A DNA stretch of 64,000 bases from the NCBI GenBank assembly GCA_046705145.1, contig JBJKQO010000027.1, forward strand, positions 14,852-78,851, written 5' to 3'. Origin of the DNA: Candidatus Woesearchaeota archaeon (lineage in GTDB: Archaea; Nanobdellota; Nanobdellia; Woesearchaeales; JBJKQO01). A program made the position numbers and the translations under genes. Shown piece by piece: positions 1-58,624 of the stretch (within the stretch, counting starts at the first letter, position 1; the number at the start of each line of letters is the position of its first letter). The notes under the pieces are model-generated. The model was not told the origin of the DNA. It worked only from the letters and a program-made list of their open reading frames with translations, and made no database searches.

Positions 1-43
1 AAGCCTCGCAGATTGATGCTGACCTTGTTTATGGCAAACTAGA

Positions 44-1057
44 TCAAAGCTTCTTCCCTACAGCTGCGCATATCGGCCTTAGCTCTTCGATCAGCTGCTT
101 CATGTTTTCGGGGTTGAGTGACTGCGCTCCGTCGCTTTTCGCGTGCTCAGGATCGTGGTGCATCTCTATTAGCAGGCCGTCTGCTCCGACTGCTGCTGAT
201 GCCTTTGCAAGGTCTGGGACAAGGTCCCTTCTTCCCGCAGCGTGGCTTGGGTCTACGATGACAGGAAGGTGCGTCTCTTTTTTCAGGAGCGCTACTGCTG
301 CGAGGTCAAGCGTGTTCCTGTATGCGGTCTCGAATGTCCTTATCCCCCTTTCGCATAGTATGACGTTCTTGTTGCCGTTCATCAGGACGTATTCTGCTGC
401 CATGATAAATTCCTTTATCGTAGCTGACATCCCTCTCTTGATGATCACTGGCTTATCTATCTTTCCCATCTCTTTTAGGAGGTCAAAGTTCTGCATGTTC
501 CTTGCTCCTACCCTTAATATGTCGACGTATTCTGCCGCTATCTGGACGTCTCTTACGTCCATGACTTCTGTCTCGACGAGCATGCTTGTCTTTTCCCTGA
601 CCTTTTTGAGTATCTTCAGGCCTTCTACCCCAAGTCCCTGGAATGAGTATGGGCTTGTCCTTGGCTTGAATGCTGATGCCCTCATTATCTTGATTCCCAT
701 GCTTTTTAGTATCTCTGCTGTCATCATCACCTGCTCTTCGTTTTCTATTGAGCATGGTCCTGCGACTATAGTGAACTCTCCGTTTCCGAATGTCACGTCT
801 CCTGCTTTGACTATGGTCTTTTCAGCATGGTGCTCTTTGCTTGCAAGCCTGTATGGCTTAAGCACTCTCATGACATTTTCGACGCATTCTACGGACTGCC
901 ATTTTTCGGGTTCGTCTTCGCTGACGTTGCCCCATACGTGGATGACAGAGCGTTCCACGCCTTCGAAGTTCACGGGCTTAAGCCCTTTTTCTTTCAGCTT
1001 GTCTTCTATCTTTCTTATGTCTTCCTTGCTTGTGTTTGGTTTAAGCACAATTATCAT
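44..1057 (-). CDS. 3-deoxy-7-phosphoheptulonate (DAHP) synthase, type I-beta, with an N-terminal ferredoxin-like regulatory extension
   Basis: 337 aa. KDO8P/DAHP-synthase TIM-barrel motifs (GPCSIE, KPRTSPYSFQG, DPSH), similar to Thermotoga/Pyrococcus-type AroG. Confidence 0.8.
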   Translation of the reverse strand: MIIVLKPNTSKEDIRKIEDKLKEKGLKPVNFEGVERSVIHVWGNVSEDEPEKWQSVECVENVMRVLKPYRLASKEHHAEKTIVKAGDVTFGNGEFTIVAGPCSIENEEQVMMTAEILKSMGIKIMRASAFKPRTSPYSFQGLGVEGLKILKKVREKTSMLVETEVMDVRDVQIAAEYVDILRVGARNMQNFDLLKEMGKIDKPVIIKRGMSATIKEFIMAAEYVLMNGNKNVILCERGIRTFETAYRNTLDLAAVALLKKETHLPVIVDPSHAAGRRDLVPDLAKASAAVGADGLLIEMHHDPEHAKSDGAQSLNPENMKQLIEELRPICAAVGKKL

Positions 1058-1331
1058 TTCTTACCACCTTTGTCTGTTTTAGTTGTTTATCGCTAAATCT
1101 TAAAGAACCTTTCGCCTTGGAATAGAATTTTAAGCTTTTTTGTGAAAAAAAGGCTCAAGATTTAGTCAATCCCAAGGCTTTATGCAAAATAAAAATAGAA
1201 GTATCTAAAATAAGCAGATCCAGAATCTTTCACGTTTTTCCCAGACGATGCTTTCATCATAGTAGATGGGAGTACAGCGGGATTTATAAAGTTTTTGATT
1301 TGATAGTCCATTGATCCCAAAAGAAGAAATG

Positions 1332-1703
1332 TCATTTTTCTATAAACATCACATTATCCTTGTTCTTGAATTCTTTGTCGCCTGTAACAAACCTTAATCC
1401 GTTTTTTGAAGCAAATATGTATCCGAAACAATCAAAAAATGATAGTTTTTGCTTCTTGTTTTCATGTTTAAAATCCATAGCATCTATCAAGATAGTAACA
1501 TCTGCCTTTTTTACAAATGGTTTCATCTTGTTATACCAGTACCTGGCCCATTCCCTGCCTGCCTCTTTTAAGAGTACCCAGTATAACTCAGATAGGGTCG
1601 TGTCAGGTATAGAAAACTCTGAATTGATCACTTGTGAATATTTTGGGTTTTTGTTGATTATTTCGATCAGCGCATAAGTATCAAGACAAAGCATTGTTAT
1701 CAC
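1332..1703 (-). CDS. vapC: PIN-domain ribonuclease toxin (VapC-like)
   Basis: 123 aa. N-terminal LDTYALIE acidic PIN motif. Sits 4 nt overlapped with, and downstream of, an AbrB-like gene. Confidence 0.65.
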   Translation of the reverse strand: MITMLCLDTYALIEIINKNPKYSQVINSEFSIPDTTLSELYWVLLKEAGREWARYWYNKMKPFVKKADVTILIDAMDFKHENKKQKLSFFDCFGYIFASKNGLRFVTGDKEFKNKDNVMFIEK

Positions 1704-1927
1704 TCGTATTTGCTTTGTAGCTCTTTTCTGAGCTCCTCGAATCTTTCTCGGGTTATTTTTCCTTTAGGCATCTGCCAGTCCCATAACTCTCGTAGGACAT
1801 TCTTGCTTTTCCTGTTGATCTCAATATTTATCTCTTCATTTTCTCCTAGTCTCATCTCATTCACCAGATCCTTTGGGATGATGATGCCTATTGAACTTCC
1901 CCATCTTCTTGTTTTACAGATAACCAT
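1700..1927 (-). CDS. vapB: AbrB/SpoVT (swapped-hairpin) family antitoxin (VapB-like)
   Basis: 75 aa. RRWGSSIGIIIPKDLV swapped-hairpin motif. Stop overlaps the start of the PIN gene. Confidence 0.6.
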   Translation of the reverse strand: MVICKTRRWGSSIGIIIPKDLVNEMRLGENEEINIEINRKSKNVLRELWDWQMPKGKITRERFEELRKELQSKYE

Positions 1928-2051
1928 TTATATAACCTATTATCTAATTAATTATATAATATGTATAACTAATATATAAATGTTACTAAGAAAAATAAAC
2001 CTCCCATTAATATGTCTTGCTAAGAAAAAATCGAAAAAGATCCGGCATATA

Positions 2052-3704
2052 CTATTTGGTTATTATACCCAAAAGCTCACTGACATTTATCTCAAATGCT
2101 GCTACAGGAAATGCAAGTTCCCATCTGGAAAGTACGTCCGGTGATATCTCGCCTATATATGCTATCTTTTTTCCTTTGACCTTTATCCTTGCTGACCTGC
2201 CAGGTATCATCGAGGGATGGTCCTCTTCGATCACATCGTACTCAAGCCCGAGCGAGCTCATAAGGTAGTCGAAAGCCTGCCTTATCTTTGTGTAGTCTGC
2301 TGATTCCTCGCATAGTGCTGCAGCCAGCCTTTCGTTCTCAAGTATGTTTGTCTCCTGGCTTTCATCTTTCTTGAAGACTGTCCCGAACCCGAATATGTTC
2401 TGAGGATAGTCGTTGTGGCGGTTGTTTCCGAGGACTTCAAGCATGTTTGGGATGACCCATGCTCTTAGCACATCATATTCTTTTGAGAGCGAGTTCTTGA
2501 GCCCTACGATGTCTGCCTTATAGTTCATCTTGTCAAGCTGGTTCTCCCTGCTTGTGAGGTTGTATGTGCAGCATTCTATCATGCCCATACCTATGAGTAT
2601 GCTTGCAATCTTTGACTTGAGTATCTCTATGCTGTCTTCCTGACCTATTGTCGCAACAGCTGGTATTATCTCTTCAAAGTTCTCATATCCGTATGCTATC
2701 GCGATGTCTTCTGCGAAGTCAATCTGGTGGATTATGTCTGCCCTGTATGCCGGGACAAGGACGTTTCCTTCCTTGTATCCATAGCCCATCCTTTCAAGAA
2801 GCTCTTTTGCCTGCGTCTTGTTGAGGTTAAGCCCCAGTATCTTGTTTATGTAGTCAAGGTCAAGCTTTATCTCTTCAGGATCAAGGTTTGGTGTTGTTTG
2901 CTTTCCATCTGGGTACTCAAGTGTCATCGAGTATATCTTTCCGCCCATGTCTGCAAAAGCTGTGACTATTATGTTCAGGCATTTCTTAAGGACCTCAAAA
3001 TCATATCCTGAGCATTCTATGAAGACGTCAGTCGTGCTTTCTGTTATCTTTCCTGTCATGTGTGAGTTTATTATAGGCGGGACTGAAAGCACGTTGTCAT
3101 CCGCGTCTATAAATACTGCAAGCTTGTCAAGGCCTTCGACCAGGTGGGCGTATTCCTTTCCTGTCGGGTGGCGCGCAAGTATCTGTGCGGCGTTTATCTC
3201 CTCGTGCCATTCAAGCGGCCGAAAGACTATGTCTTCTGGCTTTTTTGCAAGAAACCTTATCGGAGGCTTGATCTTCTCGAAAGGGTATATGCCTATCGCT
3301 GCCTTCTTCCTGTTCCTTCCGTACGTCACGTGGAGCTTTTCCTGTATCTGGATGGCTTCTTTTATCTTCTCATCATCAAATTTCATTCCCTTGACTATGG
3401 CGCATGCAGTGTATGGCCTTACTGTCTTAAGGGACTTGTCGATTATGACTTTTTCTTTTGAGTCCTCTACCTTGTAGTGCCTGAGTCCTGTCTTCTCGCC
3501 GATAAATGATGAGAATGCTCTGGCAAATCCCTGGAGGGAAAGCATGTCAGGCCTGTTCGGGAATATCTCTACGTTTATCTCATTTCCTTCTATCGAGTCA
3601 AGGTCTGTTCCCATCATCGATATCCTGTCTTTTAGCTTTTCTAGCGGAAGCTTTTTTCCGACATATGATTCAAATTCCTCTTTGCTTACTTTTATCGTTG
3701 GCAT
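2052..3704 (-). CDS. pheT: phenylalanine--tRNA ligase beta subunit (archaeal type)
   Basis: 550 aa, the usual archaeal PheT length, with B3/B4 and class-II core-like regions. Lies directly downstream of pheS. Confidence 0.9.
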   Translation of the reverse strand: MPTIKVSKEEFESYVGKKLPLEKLKDRISMMGTDLDSIEGNEINVEIFPNRPDMLSLQGFARAFSSFIGEKTGLRHYKVEDSKEKVIIDKSLKTVRPYTACAIVKGMKFDDEKIKEAIQIQEKLHVTYGRNRKKAAIGIYPFEKIKPPIRFLAKKPEDIVFRPLEWHEEINAAQILARHPTGKEYAHLVEGLDKLAVFIDADDNVLSVPPIINSHMTGKITESTTDVFIECSGYDFEVLKKCLNIIVTAFADMGGKIYSMTLEYPDGKQTTPNLDPEEIKLDLDYINKILGLNLNKTQAKELLERMGYGYKEGNVLVPAYRADIIHQIDFAEDIAIAYGYENFEEIIPAVATIGQEDSIEILKSKIASILIGMGMIECCTYNLTSRENQLDKMNYKADIVGLKNSLSKEYDVLRAWVIPNMLEVLGNNRHNDYPQNIFGFGTVFKKDESQETNILENERLAAALCEESADYTKIRQAFDYLMSSLGLEYDVIEEDHPSMIPGRSARIKVKGKKIAYIGEISPDVLSRWELAFPVAAFEINVSELLGIITK

Positions 3705-3761
3705 TTTTGATCATCATTGGTTATATTTCAAATGAGGGTCTATGTTTAGCCCTCTTATCTT

Positions 3762-3887
3762 ATAGAAAATTTCTGTCGAAATTTTCTATTCCAAAAATTG
3801 GCTAACAAGATTAGCAAGCCGTAAAACTCCGACCTTTAGGTCGGAGTTAGGCGAGCAAATATTGGTAATTAGCCAATTTTTGTTATC
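3762..3887 (-). repeat. Family-1 nested-palindrome element, copy A (inverted relative to copies B and C)
   Basis: Reverse complement is about 96% identical over ~107 nt to copy C at 56194-56346. Outer 13-bp inverted repeat AAAAATTGGCTAA/TTAGCCAATTTTT, inner hairpin CTCCGACC-TAAA-GGTCGGAG, tail ATAGAAAATTTC..GAAATTTTCTAT. Lies in the pheS-pheT intercistronic gap. Confidence 0.7.
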
Positions 3888-5428
3888 CCTTCCATCCATG
3901 TCTTTACTGTCCTTAGTGTTTTCAGGTCGTTGTTGTATATCTGCCTGATATCGTTGAACTTGTAATAGGACATCATTATCCTTTCCATGCCCTGCCCCCA
4001 TGCAAGCACAGGAACTGCTTTTCCAAGCAGCGGCTCGACGACTTCCGGACGAAATATCCCTGATCCTCCAAGCTCTACCCATGTGTTGCTGACAGGGTGA
4101 AGGACGTCAACTTCCATGGAAGGCTCTGTATATGGGAAATGTGCTGGTCTCATCCTGACATCCTTGTAGCCCATCTTCAGGTAGAACTCCTTCAGGTATC
4201 CTTTCAGGTGCTTCAGGTTTGCGTCAGGATCTACAACTATCCCTTCGACCTGCACGAACTCGAAAAGGTGTTTCCATGACAAGGTCTCGTTCCTGTATAC
4301 CTTGTTGACTGAGAAGAACTTTGCAGGAAGGTCAGATTCCTTTAGCTTTGATATCGCCTGGGCTGACAGCACTGTCGTGTGGGTCCTGAGGAGGTTTTCT
4401 TTTGCGACGTTCTCATCCCACTTGTAGCGCCAGCCTTTGCTTCCTGTGTTTCCGCCTGCCTCGTGTGTTGCCTTCACCTTGTTTTTCAGGGGCATCGGAA
4501 GTTTTCCGCAGCTTGGATCGTCTATGTAGAACGTGTCCTGCATGTCCCTTGCAGGGTGGTCCTGGGGCACGAACAGGCTGTCAAGGTCCCAGAAGGCTGT
4601 CTGGACCATTGTGCCTGTCATCTCTGTGAATCCCATCTCAAGCCATATCTTCTTTATGTATTCTATGGACTGGTTGACAAAGTGCCTTCTTCCGCCGTAT
4701 ATCTTAGGCACGTTGATCTTTACATCATATCTTCTGAAGCTCTTGCCTTTCCATGAGCCGCTCTTGAGCATCTCAGGAGTGAGCTTTTCAAGGACGTTTT
4801 CTGATGATACTTTCTTTTTTGAAAGCCTCTTTCCAAGGTCTGTCGGGACAAGCGTCCTTTCCTTTGTGAGGGCTATCTTGATCATCTCTTTTCTTTTTTT
4901 CAGATTGTCAAGAGCGAGCTTTTCAAGGTCTTTGATGTCAGATATGCTTGCTGCTGACTTCTCAAGCCTCTTTAGCAGGTCCTCTTCAGGTGTGTTCTTT
5001 TGAAGCAGCTTTTTGCCCTGATCGGTTATCGCGACCATCCCTTTTTCAAGGCTTATCGCCATCTTCCCTTTCAGCATGCCAAGAGAAGCGTTAAACTCCG
5101 TGTTTTCAAGCTTTGTCTTCTGGAGAAGGTCTTTTATCGTGAAATCTCCTTTCTCAAGCGCCTTTAGCATCTTTCTTTCAGGAAGGCCTTCTTTTGCGTA
5201 TTCCTTTCCGTTCTTGTCCAGGGAAACCTTTTCTGCCTCCTCAGACTCTATCTTCAGAAGCCCTTTGTTCTCAAGCCACTGCGCACCGCGCATAGCTTCA
5301 ATAGGCTTTAGCCCTGACTTCTTGCATGCCTCATCAAAGGAGATGTCTGAAGCAAGAAGAGGAAGCAGCTTTCGCTCATAATTGCTGAGCGATTCCAGTA
5401 GCCTTTGCTCATCTGTCGTTTGCGCCAT
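3869..5428 (-). CDS. pheS: phenylalanine--tRNA ligase alpha subunit (archaeal type)
   Basis: 519 aa. Class-II aaRS catalytic-core motifs (FRPE, HPARDMQDTFY, GxGxER). The last four codons (TKIG) and the stop are encoded by the terminal inverted repeat of the family-1 element. Confidence 0.9.
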   Translation of the reverse strand: MAQTTDEQRLLESLSNYERKLLPLLASDISFDEACKKSGLKPIEAMRGAQWLENKGLLKIESEEAEKVSLDKNGKEYAKEGLPERKMLKALEKGDFTIKDLLQKTKLENTEFNASLGMLKGKMAISLEKGMVAITDQGKKLLQKNTPEEDLLKRLEKSAASISDIKDLEKLALDNLKKRKEMIKIALTKERTLVPTDLGKRLSKKKVSSENVLEKLTPEMLKSGSWKGKSFRRYDVKINVPKIYGGRRHFVNQSIEYIKKIWLEMGFTEMTGTMVQTAFWDLDSLFVPQDHPARDMQDTFYIDDPSCGKLPMPLKNKVKATHEAGGNTGSKGWRYKWDENVAKENLLRTHTTVLSAQAISKLKESDLPAKFFSVNKVYRNETLSWKHLFEFVQVEGIVVDPDANLKHLKGYLKEFYLKMGYKDVRMRPAHFPYTEPSMEVDVLHPVSNTWVELGGSGIFRPEVVEPLLGKAVPVLAWGQGMERIMMSYYKFNDIRQIYNNDLKTLRTVKTWMEGITKIG

Positions 5429-6433: not shown

Positions 6434-8413
6434 TTAAACTTTTTGATTGTCAAAACCAAGCAGTTTAGCTGCAAGCTGGATAAAATCAAGCTTGAAGAAA
6501 TTTATATCCCCAAAAGGGATTATTATATGTACTGGCCGGCCAAGCATATTTTCAGATATGCACCTCTTGCAATGATTAAAATTGTTTTGGGCCTCTGCAT
6601 AATCCTTACAGGCAGAGATCACAATCCTATCAGTCTTTGTAGATATTGAAAAAAACACATTAGGATTTGTGGCCTTGTGAGGGTGGCCTTCATCCTCACC
6701 TGAGGGAATAGTCTGCCTGTACCTGCTAAAGACTAGCAGGTCCATCCCTATCTTCCAAAAGTCAGGAAAATTGACAACCTTTAAAACACCATTATCAATA
6801 AGCCTCTTTCTCAGCTTGCATATTGTCGGAACTGAAACAACCATCCTTTTTGCCAGTTCTGCGACAGTCGCATCAGGATATTTCATAAGTCCATATACCA
6901 ACTTTTTTTCCATCTGGCTTAAAACTATAGCCTTATGCTCTGGCTCAGCCGGCTTTTGATATTTAACATCCAACTCAAATCTTTTAGCAAGGATCCCTGC
7001 AAAGTTGAAAAAATTGCAAAAAATACTATTGTCAGAAGGAAAGTGAATCACATCATGATCCTCAAACCTGATTTTTTGCTTATGCATGATTTCTTCATAG
7101 ATATCATGGCTCTTTTTGAAATCAGACAGATTCTTTGATATCACAAAAGAAAAAAAATCCTGGCTTGATGAAACAAAATAAACTTTTTCAGGAGAGGACT
7201 TGACCTTTTCAAACATTTTTTCATGAAAACTTAACGGTATCTCCCCTTTTCCAGCCGTATCGATATATCCTAGCTTGCCATAGGTAAAACTAAAAAGGTC
7301 GCAGCCTATGATGTCAAATCTTGGCACGTATCTTGTCTTGTAGTATCCTTCGCTCTTGAGCTTGTTCTTTATGGAATTGACCGTTGTCTTCCTAAGGCCT
7401 ATCTTTTCAGCCAGCTCCTTTACGCTAAGATGGGGATACCTGACAAGCCCATAAAATGCAAGCTTCTCTTTTTTTGTAAGGTTAATCCTCTTTTCATCTA
7501 TCCTTTTTAGCTTAAGGTCAAGCTTTTTTGCGTATTCCTGAAGCTGAAGATTAAGCTTTTTTATCTCCTGCGTCTTTCTTTCAACCTCAACCTCTATCAG
7601 TTTTCTTGAGTCGTTGAGCGCCTGATCATCCCTCTTTTTCTCAGTCACATCCCTTATTATAGCGACAAAAGAAAGGGGTTTTCCTGATATGTCTTTCACA
7701 AGTCCTACTGAAAGTTCACATGGGATCTCTTTTCCGTCCCTTCTGAGCAGGTTTAACTCGATCTTTTGGCTCTTGCCTGTGTCTGATATATGTTTCATGC
7801 TTTCTCTGACTTTCTTGTGGTTTTTTAATGAAACGAACCTAAAGCAGCTCATGCCCACAAGATTTGTCCCTTCTTCAAAACCATGCAGCTCAACAAGCTC
7901 CTTATTGTGAGAAGTAATCTTTCCATCGGTCGCCACAACAGCTATCGCGTCAGGTGAGAACTCAAATATGTTCCTTATCTTTTCATTTTTGCTGTGAAGG
8001 GCTTCATTGACCTTCTTTAGTTCGCTTATGTCAGTTATGACTGCAAAGCTTCCTTGAAAGTTTTCGCCATTGCCAAATATTGGGCTTGGTGACATCAGGG
8101 TGTATAGGTTTTCGCCGTTCTTTTTTTTCCATGTCAGCTCATAAGGTGAAGCTATGCTTTTTTTCCTTAGTTCCATCTGGTCAAGGTAAATCTTCTTATT
8201 TTCCTTTTCAAGAAAATCGGTCGCTTTCCTCCCTATGATCTCGTCCCTGGAGTAGCCAAACAGCTCTATGACCCTGTCATTGACATAAGTAAGGATCCTG
8301 TTCCGGTCTACTATCCCAAAACCTTCTCTCATCGTATGGATGAGGTCGCTAAATGGAATATCATCTATCCCTAACATGTCTTTTTCGGTTTTAGTTTTTT
8401 TTTCTTTTTTCAT
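6434..8413 (-). CDS. PAS-PAS sensor fused to a coiled coil and two winged-HTH DNA-binding modules (transcriptional regulator)
   Basis: 659 aa. Two PAS S-box-like regions (residues ~20-130 and ~150-260), a Lys/Glu-rich coiled coil, then two repeats of an HTH motif (KEKLAFYGLVRYPHLSVKELAEKIGLRKTTV and MEKKLVYGLMKYPDATVAELAKRMVVSVPTI). Confidence 0.6.
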   Translation of the reverse strand: MKKEKKTKTEKDMLGIDDIPFSDLIHTMREGFGIVDRNRILTYVNDRVIELFGYSRDEIIGRKATDFLEKENKKIYLDQMELRKKSIASPYELTWKKKNGENLYTLMSPSPIFGNGENFQGSFAVITDISELKKVNEALHSKNEKIRNIFEFSPDAIAVVATDGKITSHNKELVELHGFEEGTNLVGMSCFRFVSLKNHKKVRESMKHISDTGKSQKIELNLLRRDGKEIPCELSVGLVKDISGKPLSFVAIIRDVTEKKRDDQALNDSRKLIEVEVERKTQEIKKLNLQLQEYAKKLDLKLKRIDEKRINLTKKEKLAFYGLVRYPHLSVKELAEKIGLRKTTVNSIKNKLKSEGYYKTRYVPRFDIIGCDLFSFTYGKLGYIDTAGKGEIPLSFHEKMFEKVKSSPEKVYFVSSSQDFFSFVISKNLSDFKKSHDIYEEIMHKQKIRFEDHDVIHFPSDNSIFCNFFNFAGILAKRFELDVKYQKPAEPEHKAIVLSQMEKKLVYGLMKYPDATVAELAKRMVVSVPTICKLRKRLIDNGVLKVVNFPDFWKIGMDLLVFSRYRQTIPSGEDEGHPHKATNPNVFFSISTKTDRIVISACKDYAEAQNNFNHCKRCISENMLGRPVHIIIPFGDINFFKLDFIQLAAKLLGFDNQKV

Positions 8414-8582: not shown

Positions 8583-8651
8583 GGTTCCCGTAAATAATAC
8601 GGTAGGTCAATTGTAATTTATTTTGATTTGAAAAAAAAGAGGTGGGCACAG

Positions 8652-10811
8652 ATGAAACTAATGCAAAAACTTTTGTTAGGATTCGGGATAGTAGTTGTCC
8701 TGGTCCTGATCCTTGGCGCTGTAGGGATAATCGGCCTTGGGAAGGTCGTCGGAAGCGGGGAGCAGACAATTGGAGATATACAAAAATCACAATTTCTTGA
8801 CCAGAAGCTAAACGACCATCTTCTGTGGATGGACAAGCTTACTAACCAGCTTCTGAATGATGTTGAGTTCAACGCGCAGACAGACTGGCACAAGTGCGGC
8901 TTCGGAACCTGGTATTATGGCATAAAAGAAAGCGAAGAATACGCAAAACTTTCTCCTGAAGAAAAGAAAGTATTTGACGAGATGGAACAGTACCACATAG
9001 AGCTGCACGAGTCAGGACAGGAGATAAAAGAGCTATATAGCCCTACAGACCTGACACTTGACGGGTTCCTTGCAGAAAAAGAAGGGGATCATCTGAAATG
9101 GATGATGTCCCTTATGGACACCTGGGAAGATAATAATAAAGTATTTACATCTACCACAGATCCAAGAAAATGCGGGTTTGGACAGTGGTATTACAGCTTC
9201 ATAGGCTCAGAGGACTACAATAAGTTTCCTCCAGAGATAAGGAAGGCTTTTGATGATATGGAATCCATCCACTCAGACCTGCATCACTCTGCAGAGGGCA
9301 TACTTGCTCTTGCAGGACCTGATGGAAAGATCCATGATCCGGAATCAGTAGAAAAGGCAAAGCAGATCTTCATTACAGTAACAGAACCTCGTGCAGATGA
9401 GATGCTCAAAAAGTTCGCTATAGTTAGAGCATACATAAAGGAGCAGACAGAGAAGAAGCAAAAGTCTATGGAAGTTTTCCAGACAAAAAGCGAGCCTGCT
9501 GTAGAGCACATGATGACCCTTTTTGGAGAGTATAAGACTATAGTAGATGAGGAGGCAAAGAAAAGCCAGGATAACACTAAAAGCCAGCAAGCAGGAACCC
9601 GTGCGCTTCTTGTAATATTTGTCGTCATATGCGGAGCGCTTGCCATGGTCATAGGAGTGTTTTTTGCACTCATGATAACAAGGCCCGTCAACAAGACAGT
9701 CGCCATACTAAAAGACATCGCTGAAGGCGAAGGAGATCTCACAAGGAGGATGAACGTAAAATCAAAGGATGAGATCGGGGAGATGGGGAAATGGTTTGAC
9801 AAGTTCATGGGAAACATGAACGCGATGATAGTAAGGATATCAAAAAATGCGGCATCATCTGCTGCGACTGCTGAAGAGCTAAGCGCTTCATCAGAGCAGG
9901 TGAATGCCTCAACAGAGCAGGTCTCAAGCACCGTCCAGGAGATAGCCAAAGGAAGCCAGCAGCTGAGCAAGTCTGCTGGAGACACTAAAAACGATGTTGA
10001 GCAGCTTGTAAGCTCTATAAAAACAGTTACTAACTCAGCTATGGAATCAGCAAAGAAGGCTATCGAAGCGAAAGATGCTGCGACAAAAGGAGGAGAATCC
10101 GCAAAGCTTGCTGGAGAGAAGATGCAGTCCATAAGCGAGAGCGTAAGCTCATCTGCTGCAGTTGTCCAGGATCTTGGATCAAAAAGCGAGCAGATAAACA
10201 AGGTTGTCGAAGTCATCAATTCTATATCTGAACAGACGAACCTGCTAGCGCTAAACGCAGCGATAGAAGCAGCAAGAGCAGGAGAAGCTGGACGCGGATT
10301 TGCTGTTGTTGCAGACGAGGTAAGGAAGCTTGCTGAAGAATCACAAAAAGCGACAAAACAGATAGAAGCCATGATATCAGAAATAGTCTCAAGCACTAAA
10401 AACGCTGTTGATTCCATGAGCAAAGGCAAGACAGCAGTTGATGAAGGCAACAAGGTTGTCGGAGAAGCGCTGAATGCGCTTCAGGTGATAAGCCAGAATG
10501 TTGCTGAAGTGGCTTCCCAGGTCGAGATGATAAGCGGTGCAACGCAGCAGCAGCTTGTAAGTTCAGAAAAGGTGCAGAAATCGATAGAAGGAGTATCTGC
10601 AGTAGCAGAGGAGTCTGCTGCCGGAAGCGAGGAGGTAAGCGCCTCAGTAGAACAGACGACAGCGTCGATGCAGCAGGTAGCGACATCTGCCCAGAACCTT
10701 GCAAAGAGTGCGGATGACCTGAAAAGGCTTGTCGGCAAGTTCAAGGTCGATGAAAGCGGGATGCAGGATGAACCTCCCGCTGCGCCTGCCTCCCCTGAAA
10801 AGAAGAAATGA
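8652..10811 (+). CDS. methyl-accepting chemotaxis protein with two tandem CZB (chemoreceptor zinc-binding) domains between two TM helices
   Basis: The CZB signature appears twice: H-x3-W ... W-H/R-K-C-G-F-G-x-W-Y-Y ... H-x3-H. Two TM helices, a HAMP region, and a C-terminal Ala/Ser/Glu/Gln-rich heptad MCP signalling domain (LLALNAAIEAARAGEAGRGFAVVADEVRKLAE). Start chosen at the RBS-supported ATG at 8652 rather than 8628. Confidence 0.85.
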   Translation: MKLMQKLLLGFGIVVVLVLILGAVGIIGLGKVVGSGEQTIGDIQKSQFLDQKLNDHLLWMDKLTNQLLNDVEFNAQTDWHKCGFGTWYYGIKESEEYAKLSPEEKKVFDEMEQYHIELHESGQEIKELYSPTDLTLDGFLAEKEGDHLKWMMSLMDTWEDNNKVFTSTTDPRKCGFGQWYYSFIGSEDYNKFPPEIRKAFDDMESIHSDLHHSAEGILALAGPDGKIHDPESVEKAKQIFITVTEPRADEMLKKFAIVRAYIKEQTEKKQKSMEVFQTKSEPAVEHMMTLFGEYKTIVDEEAKKSQDNTKSQQAGTRALLVIFVVICGALAMVIGVFFALMITRPVNKTVAILKDIAEGEGDLTRRMNVKSKDEIGEMGKWFDKFMGNMNAMIVRISKNAASSAATAEELSASSEQVNASTEQVSSTVQEIAKGSQQLSKSAGDTKNDVEQLVSSIKTVTNSAMESAKKAIEAKDAATKGGESAKLAGEKMQSISESVSSSAAVVQDLGSKSEQINKVVEVINSISEQTNLLALNAAIEAARAGEAGRGFAVVADEVRKLAEESQKATKQIEAMISEIVSSTKNAVDSMSKGKTAVDEGNKVVGEALNALQVISQNVAEVASQVEMISGATQQQLVSSEKVQKSIEGVSAVAEESAAGSEEVSASVEQTTASMQQVATSAQNLAKSADDLKRLVGKFKVDESGMQDEPPAAPASPEKKK

Positions 10812-10898: not shown

Positions 10899-11123
10899 TT
10901 TATTGCGAGTTTTTCTAATAATTTTTGGTCAGCATCAATTTGCGAGGCTTTTCAGAGAAAAAGACTCAGAGTTTGGGGGGGTCGCTTGCAAACTTGTTTG
11001 CAAGTCCGCCAAGATATTCTTGGCGATACACCATCCGGGGCTCAAACGGATGAAGCAGGTATCAAGAGCACAGCCGAGCCGATGCTGACCAAAAAAAGAA
11101 TTATTCGAAAAACTCGCTTATTG
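10899..11123 (+). mobile_element. Family-2 MITE-like element, copy 1 (long form)
   Basis: ~37-bp terminal inverted repeats: TTATTGCGAGTTTTTCTAATAATTTTTGGTCAGCATC at the 5' end, and the reverse complement of GATGCTGACCAAAAAAAGAATTATTCGAAAAACTCGCTTATTG at the 3' end. Internal CCATCCGGGGCT block and palindrome TTGCAAACTTGTTTGCAA shared with other copies. The ORF 10729-11088 inside it is judged spurious. Confidence 0.6.
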
Positions 11124-13014: not shown

Positions 13015-13215
13015 GCTCAGTAGAAAGTCTCGCTTCGCTCGGAGGCATCGGCTCGCTTGTGCTTCTTTAGCAAGAATGTGCTGCGTCCCCGGATGGGGTG
13101 TCGCCAAACGAGTTTGGCGGACTCATGAACAAATTCATGAGCAACCCCCCGCGACGCACTTGATTTATTAGCAACAGAAGCTCGCAAAACTGATGCCCTC
13201 ACACTTTCTACTGAG
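13015..13215 (-). mobile_element. Family-2 MITE-like element, copy 2 (divergent, inverted)
   Basis: Reverse complement carries CATCAGTTTTGCGAGCTTC, the GGGGGGTTGCTCATGAATTTGTTCATGAGTCCGCCAAACTCGTTTGGCGACACCCCATCCGGGG block and GCACAAGCGAGCCGATGCCTCC, each matching copy 1. Outer 13-bp inverted repeat CTCAGTAGAAAGT. Starts 15 nt after the TraB stop. Confidence 0.45.
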
Positions 13216-13266
13216 CCTTTATCAAACTAAAACTTTTTATAATAGGACATACAAGATAGGCTATAA

Positions 13267-23668: not shown

Positions 23669-25336
23669 TCATGTTTTTGCGATATTGTGGTAAAGCTCCA
23701 TCCCTGTTTCAGGATTGCTGTAGACAAGCTCCATCCTGTCAGAATGCCTTATCTCGTCAGCGAAATCTTCAGGCACGTGAAGAGAGGCCTGCACGAACTG
23801 CTGGTTTATGAGAACGTAATCTGCATGGTATGCGTTTGAGTATTCTTTGAGTCCGCTGTGAGAGTTTATGGCCGGCCTGCCAAGAACGTAATAGAATTCC
23901 TGCGCATTGTTCGTAAACACTGAACTGCCTTCAGGTATCATGGTTCTCATGCTGGAAAAATCCTGGTCATATTTGTGCCACTGCTGTGCTGCGCCGTAAT
24001 GGATAGCTGCTGTGCTTGCAGCGTAGCCAATCATGAGCAGGGCAAGTGCCGCAAATATAAGGTTCCTGTATCTTATCTTTTCTACCATCTCTATCCCTAA
24101 CGCCCAGAATATGCCTAAGGTCATGACTGCGGGCATGAAGTAACGCGGCACTATCTCTCCATACATGATTGTCGGAAGAATTAGGCCAACCACTAAGAAA
24201 AGTAAAAAAAACGAAAGTACGGTCTGGAAGCGCTGTTCTTTCAGTCTCATCCTGGATAACCCGAAAAAGAAAGGTACCATGTAAAGAAAGCATCCTATTA
24301 TCCAGATCGCGATCATAAGGTTTATGAAAGGGATGTTTAAGAACTTGAATGTTTCTATCCTTCCTGCAGGAAGCCCGAAAAACTGAAGCAGTCCGTTATA
24401 GGTCTCAAGCCTGAAAAAGTTGTCCAGTCCTGGGTGGGAATCGTACATGAGTGGCGTGAATTTTGCTGAATCCTTGAATATCGCTCCTGCATAAGGCCAT
24501 ATAGGATCTCCGAAATGGACGTATTGGAACAAGAAGTATGGCGCTCCGACAAGAAGCGTAATGGCAAGAAAGACAGCTGACCTTCTGGCGATAGTCAGTG
24601 CTTCATCCTTTTTTGGGAATGCAAATATGCCTTTTTTGGATGACTGGATCGCTATTATCGCAATTATAAGCGGTATCACCAATATCCCTGTCTCTTTTGC
24701 CAGTATGTTAAACCCTCCTGCCACCCCTGCAAGGATGTATCTTCCTTCAAGTGCGAAATAGGCTGCAAGCAGGAAAAGCATGACAAAGAATGTGTCAGAG
24801 TAAGGCTTTGCGTCAAAGTAAAGGTTTATCGGAAAGAAAGAACAAAACAGGGTGGTGTAAAAGGCTGTCTTCTCTGAGAACAGCTTTCTTGTTATGAGAA
24901 AAGTAAGTATAAGGCTTATGGTTCCTGAGACCGGCGAGACAAGCTTCATCATGAAGACTGCAAAGCCTTCTCCGAATAGTATGGATATCTTGTATACGAA
25001 AGCGACGGCTATGTTGAAAAGGAAAGGCTTTCCAAATACGTATCTTCCGACAGTGTCATAGACAGGTATCCTGTATGTCTCAGCGATAAACTTGGCAACT
25101 CCCAGGTGCCATGCCCCGTCAGATGAGGGGTAGACGATTACCGAGAATATCACCCTAAGAAGAAATGCGGCTATTATCATGTAGAGAGCAAGTTTTGCAT
25201 AGTCTCTTTTCCCCTTTTGGTTGGCCATGCATGATAAGATTACTTTTTTGTATTTATAGCTATCGTTTGGATTGGTTATCATATGGGTCACTGTTGAAAA
25301 ATTAGGTAGCATCAATTTGTGAGCTTCTTCAACCAA
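23669..25336 (-). CDS. GT-C fold membrane glycosyltransferase (ArnT/PMT-like)
   Basis: Multi-TM protein with an acidic first-loop motif (SSDGAWH). Probable true start is the internal ATG at 25228 (MANQKGK). Confidence 0.5.
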   Translation of the reverse strand: MVEEAHKLMLPNFSTVTHMITNPNDSYKYKKVILSCMANQKGKRDYAKLALYMIIAAFLLRVIFSVIVYPSSDGAWHLGVAKFIAETYRIPVYDTVGRYVFGKPFLFNIAVAFVYKISILFGEGFAVFMMKLVSPVSGTISLILTFLITRKLFSEKTAFYTTLFCSFFPINLYFDAKPYSDTFFVMLFLLAAYFALEGRYILAGVAGGFNILAKETGILVIPLIIAIIAIQSSKKGIFAFPKKDEALTIARRSAVFLAITLLVGAPYFLFQYVHFGDPIWPYAGAIFKDSAKFTPLMYDSHPGLDNFFRLETYNGLLQFFGLPAGRIETFKFLNIPFINLMIAIWIIGCFLYMVPFFFGLSRMRLKEQRFQTVLSFFLLFLVVGLILPTIMYGEIVPRYFMPAVMTLGIFWALGIEMVEKIRYRNLIFAALALLMIGYAASTAAIHYGAAQQWHKYDQDFSSMRTMIPEGSSVFTNNAQEFYYVLGRPAINSHSGLKEYSNAYHADYVLINQQFVQASLHVPEDFADEIRHSDRMELVYSNPETGMELYHNIAKT

Positions 25337-25496
25337 TATATTAAGGCCGACGAGGGGGGTCCCTTAAAAAAGCTGAGGCTTTTTTTAGTCCGCCAATCAT
25401 AATTGGCGACACTTACGGGGAAGTCGGCCATGAAAGACTAAGAAGCACAAGCGAACCTGATGCTACCCAAGGCGACAGCCGAGTTTTTCAACAGTG
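25289..25496 (+). mobile_element. Family-2 MITE-like element, copy 3
   Basis: Perfect 13-bp outer inverted repeat CACTGTTGAAAAA. Inner ends TTAGGTAGCATCAATTTGTGAGCTTC and GCACAAGCGAACCTGATGCTACC. Internal GGGGGGTCCC and GTCCGCCAATCATAATTGGCGAC palindrome. Confidence 0.6.
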
Positions 25497-25534
25497 TCCC
25501 CCCATATAAGAAACCTTTTTATACAAAGTAGGTT

Positions 25535-35334: not shown

Positions 35335-35537
35335 ATCTTAATTTTATTGAAAATTTCGCATTTGCGGAATTTTCTTTCGGGATGATGGTTCCCCCTCAAT
35401 TTAGTGCGAAATTTTCAATCCCGCAAAGTCGGTAACAATAGGGCGAGCATATTAATAATTAACGACTTTGCGTTATGCTTTGATTAAGGACTTAACTTTC
35501 TTTTATATAGTTTTCCCATAGCTTCCAGCTTCTGTGA

Positions 35538-37502: not shown

Positions 37503-37590
37503 AGGGACAACCCCTTAGCTCTGAGTTCGTTTAACAGAAGGAGCATCGTAAATTGATGCTACCTTCACTTTCAACAGCAGCTATTAAGCG
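37473..37590 (-). mobile_element. Family-2 MITE-like element, copy 4 (short, inverted)
   Basis: Reverse complement begins CTGTTGAAAGTGAAGGTAGCATCAATTTACGATGCTCC and ends CTTCAACAGAAGCTTCC. Internal palindrome TTGAAAAGCACAGCTTTTCAA. Confidence 0.4.
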
Positions 37591-50953: not shown

Positions 50954-51059
50954 GCTGTTCGTGTCACCCATATCCTCAGATGAAAGAAAACTGACAGTTA
51001 AAAATGTTTGGGTTTTTGGTGGGCTTATCCACAAGATAGAATATCTTCTTCACTCATAT

Positions 51060-51214
51060 ATTAAAGTTAACTCAACTGCGTTTCGTAACGTTGCGATACT
51101 ATTCATATCGCAACGTCTCCTCAAACTTGGTTTTCGGGACTCTACAATACTCGCTTTACTCGTATCGTAGAGCATTCTCAAAGCTTCGCTTTTCCTAGCC
51201 TCGCGTTACTCATT
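51060..51214. other. cluster of three imperfect hairpins in the cca / ABC-permease intergenic region
   Basis: CGTTGCGATA-ctattcat-ATCGCAACG, then CTCTACAATACTCG..CGTATCGTAGAG, then CGCGTTAC..TAACGCAAG, with a recurring TTACTC motif. Confidence 0.3.
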
Positions 51215-52456
51215 TCATTCATAACGCAAGGCATCCACAGGCTTAAGCTTGCTTGCCTGCCATGCTGGGACTGCTCCTGCTGCCATGCCGATAAATACTG
51301 ATATGGCAAGCGCCATTAGGATCAGCTTCATGCTTAGGACTCCTCCTGATCCAAACATCCTAAACATCCCTCCTGTGCTTCCCATAAGGGATGGTAAGAC
51401 TCCTGATAGCACTATGCCAAGTATTATGCCTAAGAACCCTCCTATGAACCCGATAAGTGCTGCGTTAAGGAGGAATATCTTGAGTATGTCGTTGTTTCTT
51501 GCGCCTATCGCCTTCATTATCCCTATCTCTTTTGTCTTCTCTATCACTGAAGTGAACATAGAGTTTGCTATGCCTACTGCACCTACAAGAAGTGCAACTG
51601 CTGCTATCGCTGTAAGGAATGTTGTGAGGGAGCTTGTCATCTGCGCCCTTTGAGCCTGTCTTTCCTTGTTTGAGGATATCGAAAAATCAACTTTTTTCCC
51701 TATGACATGCCTTTTTATCGAAAGCTTTTCTGTTATTGTTGCCATGGTAGTGTCAAGCTGGTTCTCATCCTTGACCTTGATTATTATGGTGTCATATACC
51801 CCTTTTGTCTTGTCTGAAAGCAGAGTGTATGCATCGTCTATCGGCATATAGACCGAGCTTGAGTCGTCATCAAGAATGCCTACTATCCTGTAAAGCTTGT
51901 CGCCTATCGTTATCATCTGGTTTACTCCGAGCTGCACTCCAAAAAAGCTTGATGCAAACCTTCCTCCGACAACTATAACCCCTGCATCTGCAGGGCCAAG
52001 AAGCCTTCCTGAAGATGTTTTTGATGTCGTTATCTGGTACCATGAAGCAGGATCGACTCCTGTTACTGAGACTGATCCTTTTTTTGCAAGATAATATGCG
52101 TCTGCGCTGCCGCTTATCTGCGTGTCTATAACTTTTATGTCACTTATTCCCCTTAATACCTGAAGGTCTGTCTTGTCAAGCACGACCTCATCTTTTGATG
52201 CTGAACTTGTGCTCCCAAATCCTCCTTCTCCTGGCCCAAACCTTCCTGCTCTTGATGCTCCTGCCCTCAAGGTAAGAAGGTCTCCTCCAAGCTGGCCCAG
52301 TTGGTCGTTCATCTCCTGCTTAAGGCCTTCTCCGATAGCTACTATCGCAACAACAGCCCCAACACCTATGACTATACCAAGGATGGTAAGCCAGCTTCTT
52401 ATCTTGCTGTTTAGCACCATCTTGAGCGCATGCTTGAAAGATTTGGAAAGTTTCAT
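51215..52456 (-). CDS. ABC transporter permease, FtsX/MacB-like
   Basis: 413 aa. N-terminal TM, large extracytoplasmic loop, three C-terminal TM helices. Confidence 0.8.
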   Translation of the reverse strand: MKLSKSFKHALKMVLNSKIRSWLTILGIVIGVGAVVAIVAIGEGLKQEMNDQLGQLGGDLLTLRAGASRAGRFGPGEGGFGSTSSASKDEVVLDKTDLQVLRGISDIKVIDTQISGSADAYYLAKKGSVSVTGVDPASWYQITTSKTSSGRLLGPADAGVIVVGGRFASSFFGVQLGVNQMITIGDKLYRIVGILDDDSSSVYMPIDDAYTLLSDKTKGVYDTIIIKVKDENQLDTTMATITEKLSIKRHVIGKKVDFSISSNKERQAQRAQMTSSLTTFLTAIAAVALLVGAVGIANSMFTSVIEKTKEIGIMKAIGARNNDILKIFLLNAALIGFIGGFLGIILGIVLSGVLPSLMGSTGGMFRMFGSGGVLSMKLILMALAISVFIGMAAGAVPAWQASKLKPVDALRYE

Positions 52457-52502
52457 TTATTTTACCTTCTGATCGCCTTTATCACTTGGCATGATCCTCT
52501 TC

Positions 52503-53945: not shown

Positions 53946-54670
53946 GATTTTTTCTCGATCTTAAGTATATTTCCGTCTTTAAGTTCTATCACTGTATGAG
54001 CATATTTTGCAAGGTTAAGGTCATGGGTTACCATGATTATTGTCTTTCCTTCTTCCTGCCATAGCCGCTTTAGCATCTCAAGGATCTCTTTTCCTGTGAC
54101 TGAGTCAAGCGCTCCTGTGGGCTCGTCTGCAAGTATTATCTCAGGATCTCCGACAAGGCTTCTTGCGATCGATACCCTTTGCTGCTGGCCTCCTGAAAGC
54201 TGCGATGGCAGGTGGTGTGTCTTGTCAGAAAGCCCGACTATGTCCAGGATCTTTTTTGCCTTGGTATATGCCTGCGAGTCATCCATCTCCTGGAATTCAA
54301 GAGGTAATAGCACGTTCTCAAAGGCAGTCATGGAGGGTATCAGGTTGTACTGCTGGAATATGAACCCTATCGTCTTTCCGCGAAACGATGCCAGGTTTGA
54401 CTCGCCAAGCGCGCTTATGTCATGTGATTTCAGAAATATCTTGCCCTTTGAGGGTATGTCAAGGCATCCTATCAGGTTCATCATTGTCGACTTTCCTGAG
54501 CCTGATGCCCCTATTATCGCGACAAAATCTCCCTTTCTTATATCGACACTTACTCCTCTAAGTGCAGGAACCTCAACTTCTCCCATCTTATAGATTTTCC
54601 ATACATTATCAAGCTTCAATAGGATCTCAGCTTGTTTTTGGGAGACCTGTTGAGTTTTTTGTTTTGCCAT
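53942..54670 (-). CDS. ABC transporter ATP-binding protein (MacB/LolD-like)
   Basis: Walker A GASGSGKST, signature LSGGQQQRVSIARSL, Walker B IILADEPT. Confidence 0.9.
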   Translation of the reverse strand: MAKQKTQQVSQKQAEILLKLDNVWKIYKMGEVEVPALRGVSVDIRKGDFVAIIGASGSGKSTMMNLIGCLDIPSKGKIFLKSHDISALGESNLASFRGKTIGFIFQQYNLIPSMTAFENVLLPLEFQEMDDSQAYTKAKKILDIVGLSDKTHHLPSQLSGGQQQRVSIARSLVGDPEIILADEPTGALDSVTGKEILEMLKRLWQEEGKTIIMVTHDLNLAKYAHTVIELKDGNILKIEKKS

Positions 54671-54688
54671 CTAAATGATACCTCTTTT

Positions 54689-55150: not shown

Positions 55151-55269
55151 CCTTATTGACCTCCTTGATATGTTGCTTTTTTCCGTTTTAACTGTGATTA
55201 TGAGTTTTGGATGTTGTCTATTTATAAGCAAAGTGGATGACAAGTCCATCTATCGATCTGATCTAAAAA

Positions 55270-55480
55270 AATAAAAAAAATTGGCTAATTACTATTATTA
55301 GCTCGCCTATCTCCGACCTAAAGGTCGGAGTATTACGGCTCGCTAATCTTGTTAGCCAATTTTTGGAATAGCAAAGTCGAGCCTGTATCAAAAAACGAAG
55401 TTTTTTGAAATGCTCGGTAAGCTTTGCTTACCGACATATCTACAACCTAAAGGAAATAGTATTAGGCTCGACTTTTCTAT
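55270..55480 (+). repeat. Family-1 nested-palindrome element, copy B (with long variable tail)
   Basis: Core AAAAATTGGCTAATTACTATTATTAGCTCGCCTATCTCCGACCTAAAGGTCGGAGTATTACGGCTCGCTAATCTTGTTAGCCAATTTTTGG. Variable module AGTCGAGCC..CGGTAAGCTTTGCTTACCG..GGCTCGACT. Ends TTTTCTAT. Confidence 0.7.
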
Positions 55481-55506
55481 AAAAAAATAAAAAATGTTGG
55501 TGTGGT

Positions 55507-56043: not shown

Positions 56044-56193
56044 TTTTGGTTTACCTCCAAATGTTTATGAAAAGATGGGGCGCTTCCGTAATATTTAAAT
56101 AAGAAGAAGCACAGATGTACACTTTAGGTCCATATTGTTTATATATGATATAGGCAATCCTAAGATCATATAATATATTATTAATAACAAAAA

Positions 56194-56346
56194 TTGGCTA
56201 ATTACCAATATTAGCTCGCCTATCTCCGACCTAAAGGTCGGAGTTTTACGGCTCGCTAATCTTGTTAGCCAATTTTTGGGATAGAAAATTTCGACATAAA
56301 TGTCGGGGTTTTAAACCCCCTGAAAATTTCTAGTCGAAATTTTCTA
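56194..56346 (+). repeat. Family-1 nested-palindrome element, copy C
   Basis: Same core as copy B (differs by 2-3 nt). Variable module ATAGAAAATTTCGAC..GGGGTTTTAAACCCC..GTCGAAATTTTCTAT. Confidence 0.7.
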
Positions 56347-56385
56347 TAAAATTAAAAATAAATTTAGAATATCAAAGGTGAAAAA

Positions 56386-57335: not shown

Positions 57336-57348
57336 GTAGGAACAGAGA

Positions 57349-57498: not shown

Positions 57499-57554
57499 CC
57501 AAAAAAAACAAAAGCTTAAATACAAGCGATGCGAGTTTGCGTTGACGATATATA

Positions 57555-58604: not shown

Positions 58605-58624
58605 AAAACAAAAAAATTAAGGGA

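Follow-up and report, generated by a model that had tools for sequence, protein, structure and literature searches.

A bipartite palindromic repeat between pheS and pheT of a Woesearchaeota archaeon as a probable mobile element

The pheS-pheT Locus

In a stretch of 64,000 nucleotides (nt) from Candidatus Woesearchaeota archaeon (assembly GCA_046705145.1, contig JBJKQO010000027.1, positions 14,852 to 78,851 of the forward strand; hereafter the window), the aminoacyl-tRNA synthetase subunit genes pheS and pheT are separated by a strongly folded palindromic unit, copy A of a repeat family that is called here family 1. A first-pass annotation of the window had proposed that this unit is either a very recent insertion of a miniature inverted-repeat transposable element (abbreviated as MITE) or a conserved RNA structure of the pheST messenger. 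The analysis described below indicates that copy A is probably a non-coding, non-autonomous, mobile palindromic element of the kind of MITEs and Rickettsia palindromic elements (RPEs), and that the family to which it belongs is a previously undescribed one of DPANN (Woesearchaeota-like) archaea. The features are collected in Table 1.

The minus strand reads ...TGG ATG GAA GGG ATA ACA AAA ATT GGC TAA (...WMEGITKIG*) at the 3' end of pheS, and the last four to five codons and the stop fall within copy A; in particular, the codons ACA AAA ATT GGC and the TAA lie in the outer stem of its hairpin A, as the first-pass annotation had claimed, with the correction that the unit begins four bases earlier, at ATAA|C. 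The PheS proteins of Woesearchaeota end in ...K(T/I)WM(K/R) and that of the nearest relative, which has no element, in ...WMRGIE*; since these orthologues end before the element-derived residues and TKIG is not found in them, this tail is not ancestral. Removal of the 123-nt copy A gives ...GAA GGG ATA AGA TAA, that is ...WMEGIR*, near the ...WMRGIE* of the relative. Copy A would have entered ...GGG AT|A AGA TAA at the pheS end, so that the terminal R* would be replaced by TKIG*, with the TAA supplied by the stem of the element itself, and pheT would be moved 123 nt further from pheS; the empty, uninserted allele is predicted as ...GGGATAAGATAA. The truncation of pheS that had been envisaged is not found, the tail being apparently about three residues longer instead (...EGIR* to ...EGITKIG*), and the insertion appears to be tolerated and not to be functional for pheST.

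In the nearest relative (locus L030, positions 1-4021), pheS is followed by a gene for a 237-aa AlaX-like editing-domain protein (tRNA_SAD), whose start overlaps the pheS stop (ATGA), and then by pheT; the window lineage has no AlaX-like gene between pheS and pheT. Model R1, a family model built from family 1 members, did not find the element in 21 kb of this relative, including pheS-alaX-pheT, and the orthologous position is likewise free of a pheST-specific leader of this type in this one relative. These data bear on the second proposal of the first-pass annotation, a conserved RNA that acts in cis, as attenuator, terminator/antiterminator or processing site, and sets the pheS/pheT stoichiometry. 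Copy A is located in sense orientation between two subunit genes, is plausibly transcribed on the pheST mRNA and has a strong fold; its hairpin A ends in T5, which by inference from oligo-T termination could terminate archaeal transcription, and alternative pairings are possible in hairpin B of other copies (copy C and those of the metagenome loci L026 and L012, see below). However, the element is not tied to pheST: it is also found beside unrelated genes and inside an IS66 transposase gene and a pilin gene, its orientation is mixed, with copy B antisense to both neighbours, and no strand-specific G·U signature is seen; furthermore, the nearest relative manages without it, with pheS overlapping the alaX-like gene, and other Woesearchaeota PheS stop before the residues that derive from it. 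A regulatory RNA dedicated to pheST is thus highly improbable.

Archaeal termination is oligo-T dependent and not hairpin dependent; a scan for terminators of the bacterial type, uninformative for archaea, did not flag the nested hairpins. As a side effect of the insertion, the transcribed hairpin with its T5 run may make the archaeal RNA polymerase stop or pause, whichever way it is read, and copy A puts 123 nt of strongly folded sequence with such a run ahead of pheT. Between copy A and pheT (3709-3760) there is another small hairpin, GAGGGCTAAACATAGACCCTC, after which CATTTGAAATATAACC comes immediately upstream of the ATG of pheT; this stretch could represent the native pheS terminator region together with a weak pheT promoter; a weak TATA-like TTTGAAATATAA is present 17-20 nt before the ATG, and pheT may be expressed by read-through or from this TATA-like sequence, both routes being candidates. 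The 3' end of the element (CGAAATTTTCTATAAAA) was also considered as a donor of a transcription factor B recognition element (BRE) and a TATA box and was rejected: in copy C it has a plausible spacing to the gene at 56386, for which it could serve as a TATA box, but the spacing is unfit for pheT and for the gene after copy D.

Table 1. Features of the pheS-pheT locus and family 1 units of the window
Feature	Position	Strand	Description
pheT, 550 aa	2052..3704	-	B1, B3_4, B5 and tRNA_synthFbeta domains (Pfam); start 57 nt past the end of copy A
pheS, 519 aa	3869..5428	-	tRNA-synt_2d (Pfam); last codons from copy A
Overlap of copy A and pheS	3869..3886	-	ATA ACA AAA ATT GGC TAA (ITKIG*); stop 3869-3871 within the outer stem of hairpin A
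Copy A, 123-nt unit	3762..3886	-	host AT (3886-3885), AAC-hairpin A-GG-hairpin B, final AT (3763-3762), then AA (3761-3760)
Copy A, hairpin A	3792..3882	-	14-bp outer stem CAAAAATTGGCTAA/TTAGCCAATTTTTG, internal loops, second stem, central hairpin
Copy A, central hairpin	3827..3846	-	CTCCGACC-TAAA-GGTCGGAG; identical in copies A, B, C and metagenome relatives
Copy A, hairpin B	3762..3789	-	ATAGAAAATTTC-GACA-GAAATTTTCTAT; short form, 39 nt of copy C missing
Copy B, 208-nt unit	55271..55480	+	hairpin A 94% identical to copy C; hairpin B variant ATAGCAAAGTCGAGCC...GGCTCGACTTTTCTAT, long interior
Copy C, 162-nt unit	56184..56347	+	fullest form; hairpin B encloses CGAC-ATAAAT-GTCG and GGGGTTTTAAACCCC
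Copy D, 129-nt diverged unit	35346..35476	-	ATAAC-GCAAAGTCG...CGACTTTGC-GG-ATTGAAAATTTCGCA...TGCGAAATTTTCAAT; without the central CTCCGACC hairpin

Copies and Anatomy of the Element

The core of about 105 nt that had been recognized three times in the window is indeed present in copies A, B and C, to which a fourth, diverged copy D is added here. The 13-nt arm AAAAATTGGCTAA and its reverse complement give six exact matches, that is three pairs, each 63 nt apart (3793-3805/3869-3881, 55276-55288/55352-55364 and 56189-56201/56265-56277), so the perfect 13-bp outer inverted repeat stands for all three copies, and each pair has one inner hairpin of 20 nt with a TAAA loop (55311-55330(+) and 56224-56243(+) in copies B and C), which has 0 matches in 100 shuffles. 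An ATTAGC/GCTAAT pair is present as reported, and it is imperfect in copy A, where the 5' side is ATTTGC. The identity of about 96% that had been attributed to the copies is valid for A/C (96% over 118 nt), whereas A/B reach 92% over 105 nt and B/C 94% over 106 nt. Folding of either strand of the family 1 copies gives z-scores of about -11 with respect to dinucleotide shuffles. Model R1 assigns 91.3 bits to copy A and, with filters off, 29 bits (E = 5e-4) to hairpin A of copy D (35416-35478); the forward strand scores about 40 bits above the reverse, as expected from how the model was built.

The four copies are located in the pheS/pheT spacer, in a divergent promoter region and in two tandem-gene spacers, and their neighbours are unrelated; with respect to the genes, A, D and B are flanked by tandem genes, A and D in sense and B in antisense orientation, and C is flanked by divergent genes. 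As is characteristic of MITEs, the units are small, well below a limit of about 500 bp, and non-coding (eight complete units of 123-210 nt, metagenome relatives included, without a common reading frame) and dispersed in multiple copies (four in 64 kb, three of which at 92-96% identity).

The unit is composed of hairpin A, a GG linker and hairpin B, and its minimum-energy fold is alike in every complete copy: four unpaired bases (ATAA or ATCA), hairpin A, GG, hairpin B and AA. In hairpin A, an A-run is followed by the outer stem, a second stem, TAT, the invariant central hairpin, TWTTAC, the return strands and a T-run; its 3' side has a bulge that reads CTTG, CTTGATA, TTAAAA or TTTGACA, and the second stem bears a symmetric TC/TC internal loop in three lineages. 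The tail described in the first-pass annotation is present, but it is really the second hairpin of the unit, hairpin B (ATAGAAAATTTC...GAAATTTTCTAT in copy A), with an interior that varies among copies. Hairpin B starts with AT(A/T)GAAAAT, ends with ATTTTC(T/A)AT and has in its interior a second TAAA-type hairpin and then GGGGTWTTAnACCCC; in fact, a core motif consisting of a GC-rich stem, a TAAA loop and TWTTA is common to hairpins A and B in the same orientation, and its T/A variant agrees between the two in 5 of 7 elements.

The window copies vary mainly in hairpin B, which is full in copy C, lacks 39 nt of the interior in copy A and in copy B has a different stem with compensated changes and a long interior. 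Copies B and C, with a near-identical hairpin A but an unlike hairpin B, suggest that modules are exchanged between sub-families. In hairpin B of copy C, L026 and L012, an internal repeat of its own 5' arm is found, which makes alternative pairings possible. A check for terminal inverted repeats showed that the likeness between the two ends of the unit is limited to AT-N(1-4)-(G)AAAA(T), the ends being the feet of the two hairpins.

A protein-coding element was considered and rejected. The open frame differs from copy to copy, no reading frame being common to them, and in the window each of the four copies is interrupted by stops in every forward frame; therefore, the element is not a gene. 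The 52-aa open reading frame (ORF) of the element in the metagenome locus L023 shared no words with, and had no match among, 5.8 billion proteins.

Relatives in Metagenomes and Conservation of Structure

A metagenome scan for exact matches to the 20-nt central hairpin returned 21 loci, 8 of which (L012, L014, L017, L019, L020, L023, L026 and L029) share the two-hairpin architecture with differing stem sequences. Relatives are found in at least five other metagenome lineages, with the architecture and the unpaired motifs kept and the outer stems differing by compensated changes. In each of two samples, identical elements occur in different flanks (L014/L020 and L017/L019/L023), so the family is multi-copy in metagenome samples too, and the presence of intron-containing tRNA genes in L012 and L020 and of archaeal-type pilin genes in L029 indicates that those hosts are also archaea.

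Covariation, a check suggested by the first-pass annotation, is found in an alignment of eight members: 6 of the 11 pairs of the outer stem are changed on both sides and 98% of the cells are paired, while sliding the outer-stem partner brings the pairing down to 24-54% and 0 shuffles reach the covariation score. The unpaired TAT, TAAA, TWTTAC and the GG linker are conserved among the relatives. A second small element of L014 (1027-1092) keeps the TAT, the TAAA loop and the 3' linker containing TTTAC (ACTTTACC) around a central stem that is different and compensated (CCCCCAGC/GCTTGGGGG); together with the covarying outer stems, it identifies the geometry and the unpaired nucleotides as the conserved parts. 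In L012 (548-636), the stem of the central hairpin is the same and the loop is inverted, TTTA instead of TAAA in the element orientation, as would result from the inversion of a perfect DNA palindrome.

Covarying stems with conserved unpaired nucleotides, a T-run after hairpin A and the forward-strand excess of model R1, though the latter is expected by construction, are what a family of small-RNA genes, or another trans-acting structured RNA with a functional forward strand, would display. Such a family, also suggested in the first-pass annotation, is nonetheless quite unlikely: the copies have no upstream promoter in common and unrelated flanks, their orientation is mixed and some lie inside ORFs. 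G·U pairs amount to 9 in the forward and 10 in the reverse strand of about 450 (about 2%), without strand bias, and the loop of L012 is inverted as in a DNA palindrome; because of this low, strand-equal G·U content and the inverted loop, a DNA palindrome fits better than an RNA selected on one strand. Nor did the Rfam/Infernal scan match any known RNA family: there was no match at gathering score in the 64 kb, no family was matched even at E = 10, the best score for copies B and C at E <= 10 being 21 bits versus thresholds of 40-229, and nothing relevant to the element was found in the metagenome loci.

Other occurrences of parts of the element were also considered. Eight bacterial loci obtained from a scan of genome contigs with AAATTGGCTAA N45-75 TTAGCCAATTT are not recognized by the family model and were discarded as chance matches, the scan of viral contigs with the central hairpin gave no match, and the likeness of GGGATTGAAAAT to the ends of CRISPR repeats was dropped, no array being present. 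The 20-nt hairpin, or a TGAA-loop or compensated variant of it, is also located inside other repeat families of other organisms with 33-62% GC, i.e., in L013 (1760-1782, 2329-2348), L016 (391-412, 1048-1069), L024 (1170-1190, 1819-1838), L010/L027, L011 and L009/L015, often 20-35 nt after a GGGC-TAAA-GCCC hairpin; its occurrences are far above the approximately one chance match estimated for an exact 20-mer in such a collection. In L022, a group II intron (4998-5074, domains V/VI, 64.8 bits) is situated about 250 nt from the copy of the 20-nt hairpin on that contig.

Insertion Sites, Flanks and Unit Lengths

Three sites can be read as before/after insertion pairs, namely the IS66 transposase gene of L023, the pilin gene of L029 and pheS. 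In L023, a 138-nt unit splits the transposase at ...EPTNN|NAERALR with the same frame on either side; when the unit is removed, ...HLFVEPTNN is joined to NAERALRELIVQRK... and the Pfam domain DDE_Tnp_IS66 spans the junction (residues 83-341, E = 3.7e-38), while with the element in place the frame meets the TAA of the central loop and the gene is broken. In L029, a 162-nt unit lies in frame and free of stops (54 codons) between codons 6 and 7 of a pilin-like gene, in the signal peptide; its removal gives MKNCENKKSQ|AAIEFLITYGWAIL, to be compared with MHNINSSKGQ|AALEFLITYGWAIM of the paralogue immediately upstream, and among shuffled inserts no more than 1.8% keep that frame free of stops. This pilin has no Pfam or NCBIfam match, and its identity rests on the N-terminal motif and the neighbouring paralogue. 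With regard to the in-frame insertion that is typical of RPEs, L029 is in frame, pheS has a C-terminal fusion and L023 is stopped in frame.

The flanks are host AT | element | AA in 8 of 8 complete units; AT is also the end of the element, and a single AT is what the two ORFs require once repaired. Since hairpin B is closed by a pair that includes the right-hand AT, a duplication of AT and a duplication-free insertion between AT and AA both fit. A TA duplication of the IS630 type is unfit for L023, whose left flank is ...AAAT. The target ATAA contains TAA and, in L026, the stop of the upstream ORF spans the left junction and is rebuilt by the first two bases of the element.

The lengths of the units (123, 208, 162, 129, 135, 162, 138 and 210 nt) are multiples of three in seven of eight cases, which independent units would show with a probability of about 0.003; the independence is not complete, however, as a 39-nt deletion relates copies A and C. 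At least one stop-free forward frame is present in 4/8 units versus approximately one expected from shuffles. In a small sample of eight units, this tolerance of length and frame recalls the Rickettsia palindromic elements.

Taken as a dispersed family that conserves its structure and enters genes at AT|AA, the units behave as insertion-type DNA. The MITE insertion proposed in the first-pass annotation is thus supported by the unrelated contexts and by the relatives inside genes, but its being very recent is not borne out, as the copies are 4-8% apart and also differ by indels. An intron of the bulge-helix-bulge type was rejected: the boundaries do not pair together and the insertion sites are unrelated.

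The arrangement of copies B and C calls for a comparison with integrons, in which attC-like hairpins would delimit a gene cassette formed by copy B, ORF 55507-56043 and copy C. The two copies are direct repeats 913 nt apart around this single 178-aa ORF, within the stretch of about 7.5 kb that separates radA from the CCA-enzyme gene in the window and is missing from the nearest relative; moreover, the hairpin structure is better conserved than the sequence, as in attC sites, and the window copies carry GTTAGCC, one mismatch from GTTRRRY. However, the R'' side, GGCTAAT, has two mismatches from RYYYAAC, and the outer stems of the relatives are unrelated (TCCGCC, CTCGCC, CTCGCAC) and have no GTT/AAC boxes, so R''/R' boxes are not conserved. 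In addition, there are two sites rather than an array, no tyrosine recombinase or Phage_integrase was detected by Pfam among 55 scanned ORFs of the window, neither copies A and D nor the insertions within genes resemble cassettes, and the ORF lies on the strand opposite to the assigned orientation of the element. An integron-type origin is accordingly very unlikely, the resemblance being one of imperfect palindromes whose structure prevails over sequence and of two copies that bracket one ORF.

Another parallel is offered by palindrome-associated transposable elements (PATEs), derivatives of single-strand transposons (HUH/Y1, IS200/IS605 type); on this model, the two TAAA hairpins would form the left and right ends of a unit that inserts 3' of a short target and does not duplicate it. 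Both hairpins have the same core in the same orientation, stem-TAAA-stem-TWTTA(C/AAC), i.e., two similar hairpins as in the ends of such transposons, with the T/A variant matched between the modules in 5/7 elements; long terminal inverted repeats are absent, structure and not sequence is conserved, and insertion is target-specific, the left flank always ending in AT, as does the element. Furthermore, model R1 weakly matches the hairpin B core of copy C (13.4 bits, E = 2.5). On the other hand, no Y1 transposase (TnpA) or TnpB is seen in the window or in the loci, a constraint that the IS608 paradigm does not demand acts on the right flank too (AA in 8/8), and the nested outer stems of hairpin A have no counterpart in the ends of IS200/IS605. 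In published work on IS608, cleavage sites reportedly lie 10-19 nt from the hairpins, whereas in family 1 cleavage would fall at the hairpin feet. On balance, a PATE is an unlikely identity for the element.

Nature of the Element

Family 1 is regarded here as a new family of an already known kind, i.e., MITE-like/RPE-like palindromic repeats. Its units would have been moved in trans by an enzyme encoded elsewhere, which probably recognizes the folded hairpins, perhaps on single-stranded DNA, and not long terminal inverted repeats; recognition of hairpins is the likelier mode given that the ends share only AT-N(1-4)-AAAA while geometry and linkers are conserved.

Several observations weigh against a mobile palindromic element. 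No transposase, integrase or HUH protein was found by Pfam among 55 scanned ORFs of the window, and no full-length parent element in any locus, so that mobility is deduced from the insertion sites only; in fact, the only transposase of the loci (IS66, L023) is a target and not a parent. Apart from AT-N(1-4)-AAAA, the units lack a clear terminal inverted repeat, and the AT...AT around all eight units may include, on the right, an AT of the element rather than a target duplication. A true empty-site allele of the same locus was not found, the nearest relative having 71-78% protein identity and an extra gene between pheS and pheT. Finally, the interior motifs are conserved across lineages beyond what is expected for purely selfish DNA, and a role at the level of the host is possible.

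Prokaryotic MITEs, such as Sulfolobus SM1-4, Neisseria Correia elements and MITEEc1, are likewise small, non-coding, multi-copy and mostly intergenic, with a strong fold when transcribed, a short flanking direct repeat and nesting in another insertion sequence (IS); in contrast, family 1 lacks an extended terminal inverted repeat and an identifiable parent IS and is conserved most inside (central hairpin and linkers) and least at the ends, the reverse of a typical MITE. In a bulk survey, a woesearchaeal genome is among the archaea with the highest MITE density, with 105 MITEs per Mb (PMC11602168).

RPEs are intergenic or else lie within ORFs, either inserted in frame or fused to the C-terminus (PMC10969869). 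Like family 1, they are palindromic repeats of about 100-200 nt without a known transposase, and family 1 has one in-frame insertion (L029), one C-terminal fusion (pheS) and lengths of 3n in 7/8 units. Nevertheless, RPEs encode a conserved peptide, while the units described here have no common frame, their in-gene copy of L023 breaks the gene with stop codons, the host is an archaeon (DPANN) and the likeness is one of features, with no expectation of similarity in sequence. A dispersed repeat with a hairpin-plus-T-run core and a possible terminator role (PMC10969869) is also similar, although family 1 has an archaeal host and is bipartite, with A-runs that mirror the T-runs. Repetitive extragenic palindromes and bacterial interspersed mosaic elements (REP/BIME), with a palindrome of 20-40 nt, a GTAG/CGTC head and a RAYT gene, do not correspond to the units, which measure 123-210 nt, have no such head at the hairpin feet and are accompanied by no Y1 transposase.

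A more specific extension of this comparison, which is held only tentatively and with rather little confidence, is that the units are the archaeal counterpart of RPEs: mobile DNA defined by structure, which an enzyme specific for structure, of the HUH type or another, would recognize as folded single strands and insert between AT and AA, and which would be selected for 3n length and often for freedom from stops, and so be able to sit inside genes. If so, the 20-nt TAAA hairpin in unrelated, GC-richer organisms would mark a widespread and undescribed hairpin-recognizing system.

To our knowledge, repeats of DPANN archaea have so far only been counted in bulk surveys; for one such family, the anatomy can now be given in concrete terms, together with a target site (AT|AA) and three insertion events that are datable, one of which seems to have harmlessly rewritten the end of a gene for an essential aminoacyl-tRNA synthetase. 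As to annotation, the odd C-terminus of PheS and the long "signal peptide" of the pilin are explained as insertion artefacts. If the 3n rule and hairpin recognition hold on whole genomes, family 1 would represent tractable mobile DNA that survives in the coding sequence of tiny archaeal genomes and would give a lead towards the mobilizing enzyme.

Host, Gene Content and Other Repeats of the Window

Apart from the proteins of the window itself, the nearest PheS is 71% and the nearest RadA 78% identical, followed by hundreds of proteins of Woesearchaeota, Nanoarchaeota and Nanoarchaeia archaeon at about 60% (PheS) and about 73% (RadA); these identities characterize the host as a DPANN-type archaeon without a close sequenced relative, and the window proteins are singletons. 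In the upstream regions of about 43 genes across the window, promoters are recognizable in many cases as TTTAWATA ending 22-25 nt before the ATG, with no Shine-Dalgarno sequence there, a spacing which implies mostly leaderless mRNAs; GGAGG- or GGTGA-like sites precede operon-internal genes and those whose leaders are longer.

A second, unrelated family of nested palindromes of about 200 nt is present at 10905-11117(+), 13015-13216(-), 25285-25500(+) and 57360-57486(+), with partial copies at 63556-63617 and 37546-37578(-). It is characterized by the motifs GGT(C/A)AGCATCAATTTGCGAG..., AGTCCGCCAA...TTGGCGA(C/T)AC, CCGGGG and GAAGCACA(G/A)(C/G)CGAGCCGATGCT; the folding energy of one copy is -85.5 kcal/mol (z = -7.5), and no Rfam match was found. 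Families 1 and 2 together occupy about 10 of the 57 intergenic gaps of the window.

The region 51035-58624 has the look of a variable island: it places about 7.5 kb between radA and the gene of the CCA-adding enzyme, which are adjacent in the nearest relative (L031). Besides copies B and C and one family 2 element, it contains genes for an ABC/MacB transporter, an HTH_45 protein, a double-zinc-ribbon protein and small proteins of secreted or membrane type. The product of ORF 55507-56043, between copies B and C, is secreted-looking, contains ISAGDY(E/D)A(Y/W) as an internal repeat and has no match in Pfam. The window also encodes a methyl-accepting chemotaxis protein with HAMP, CZB and MCPsignal domains (8628-10811(+)), a PAS-PAS-TrmB/MarR regulator (6434-8413(-)) and a DAHP synthase (44-1057(-)), and the sensory and biosynthetic repertoire gives the impression of being richer than is usual for small DPANN genomes.

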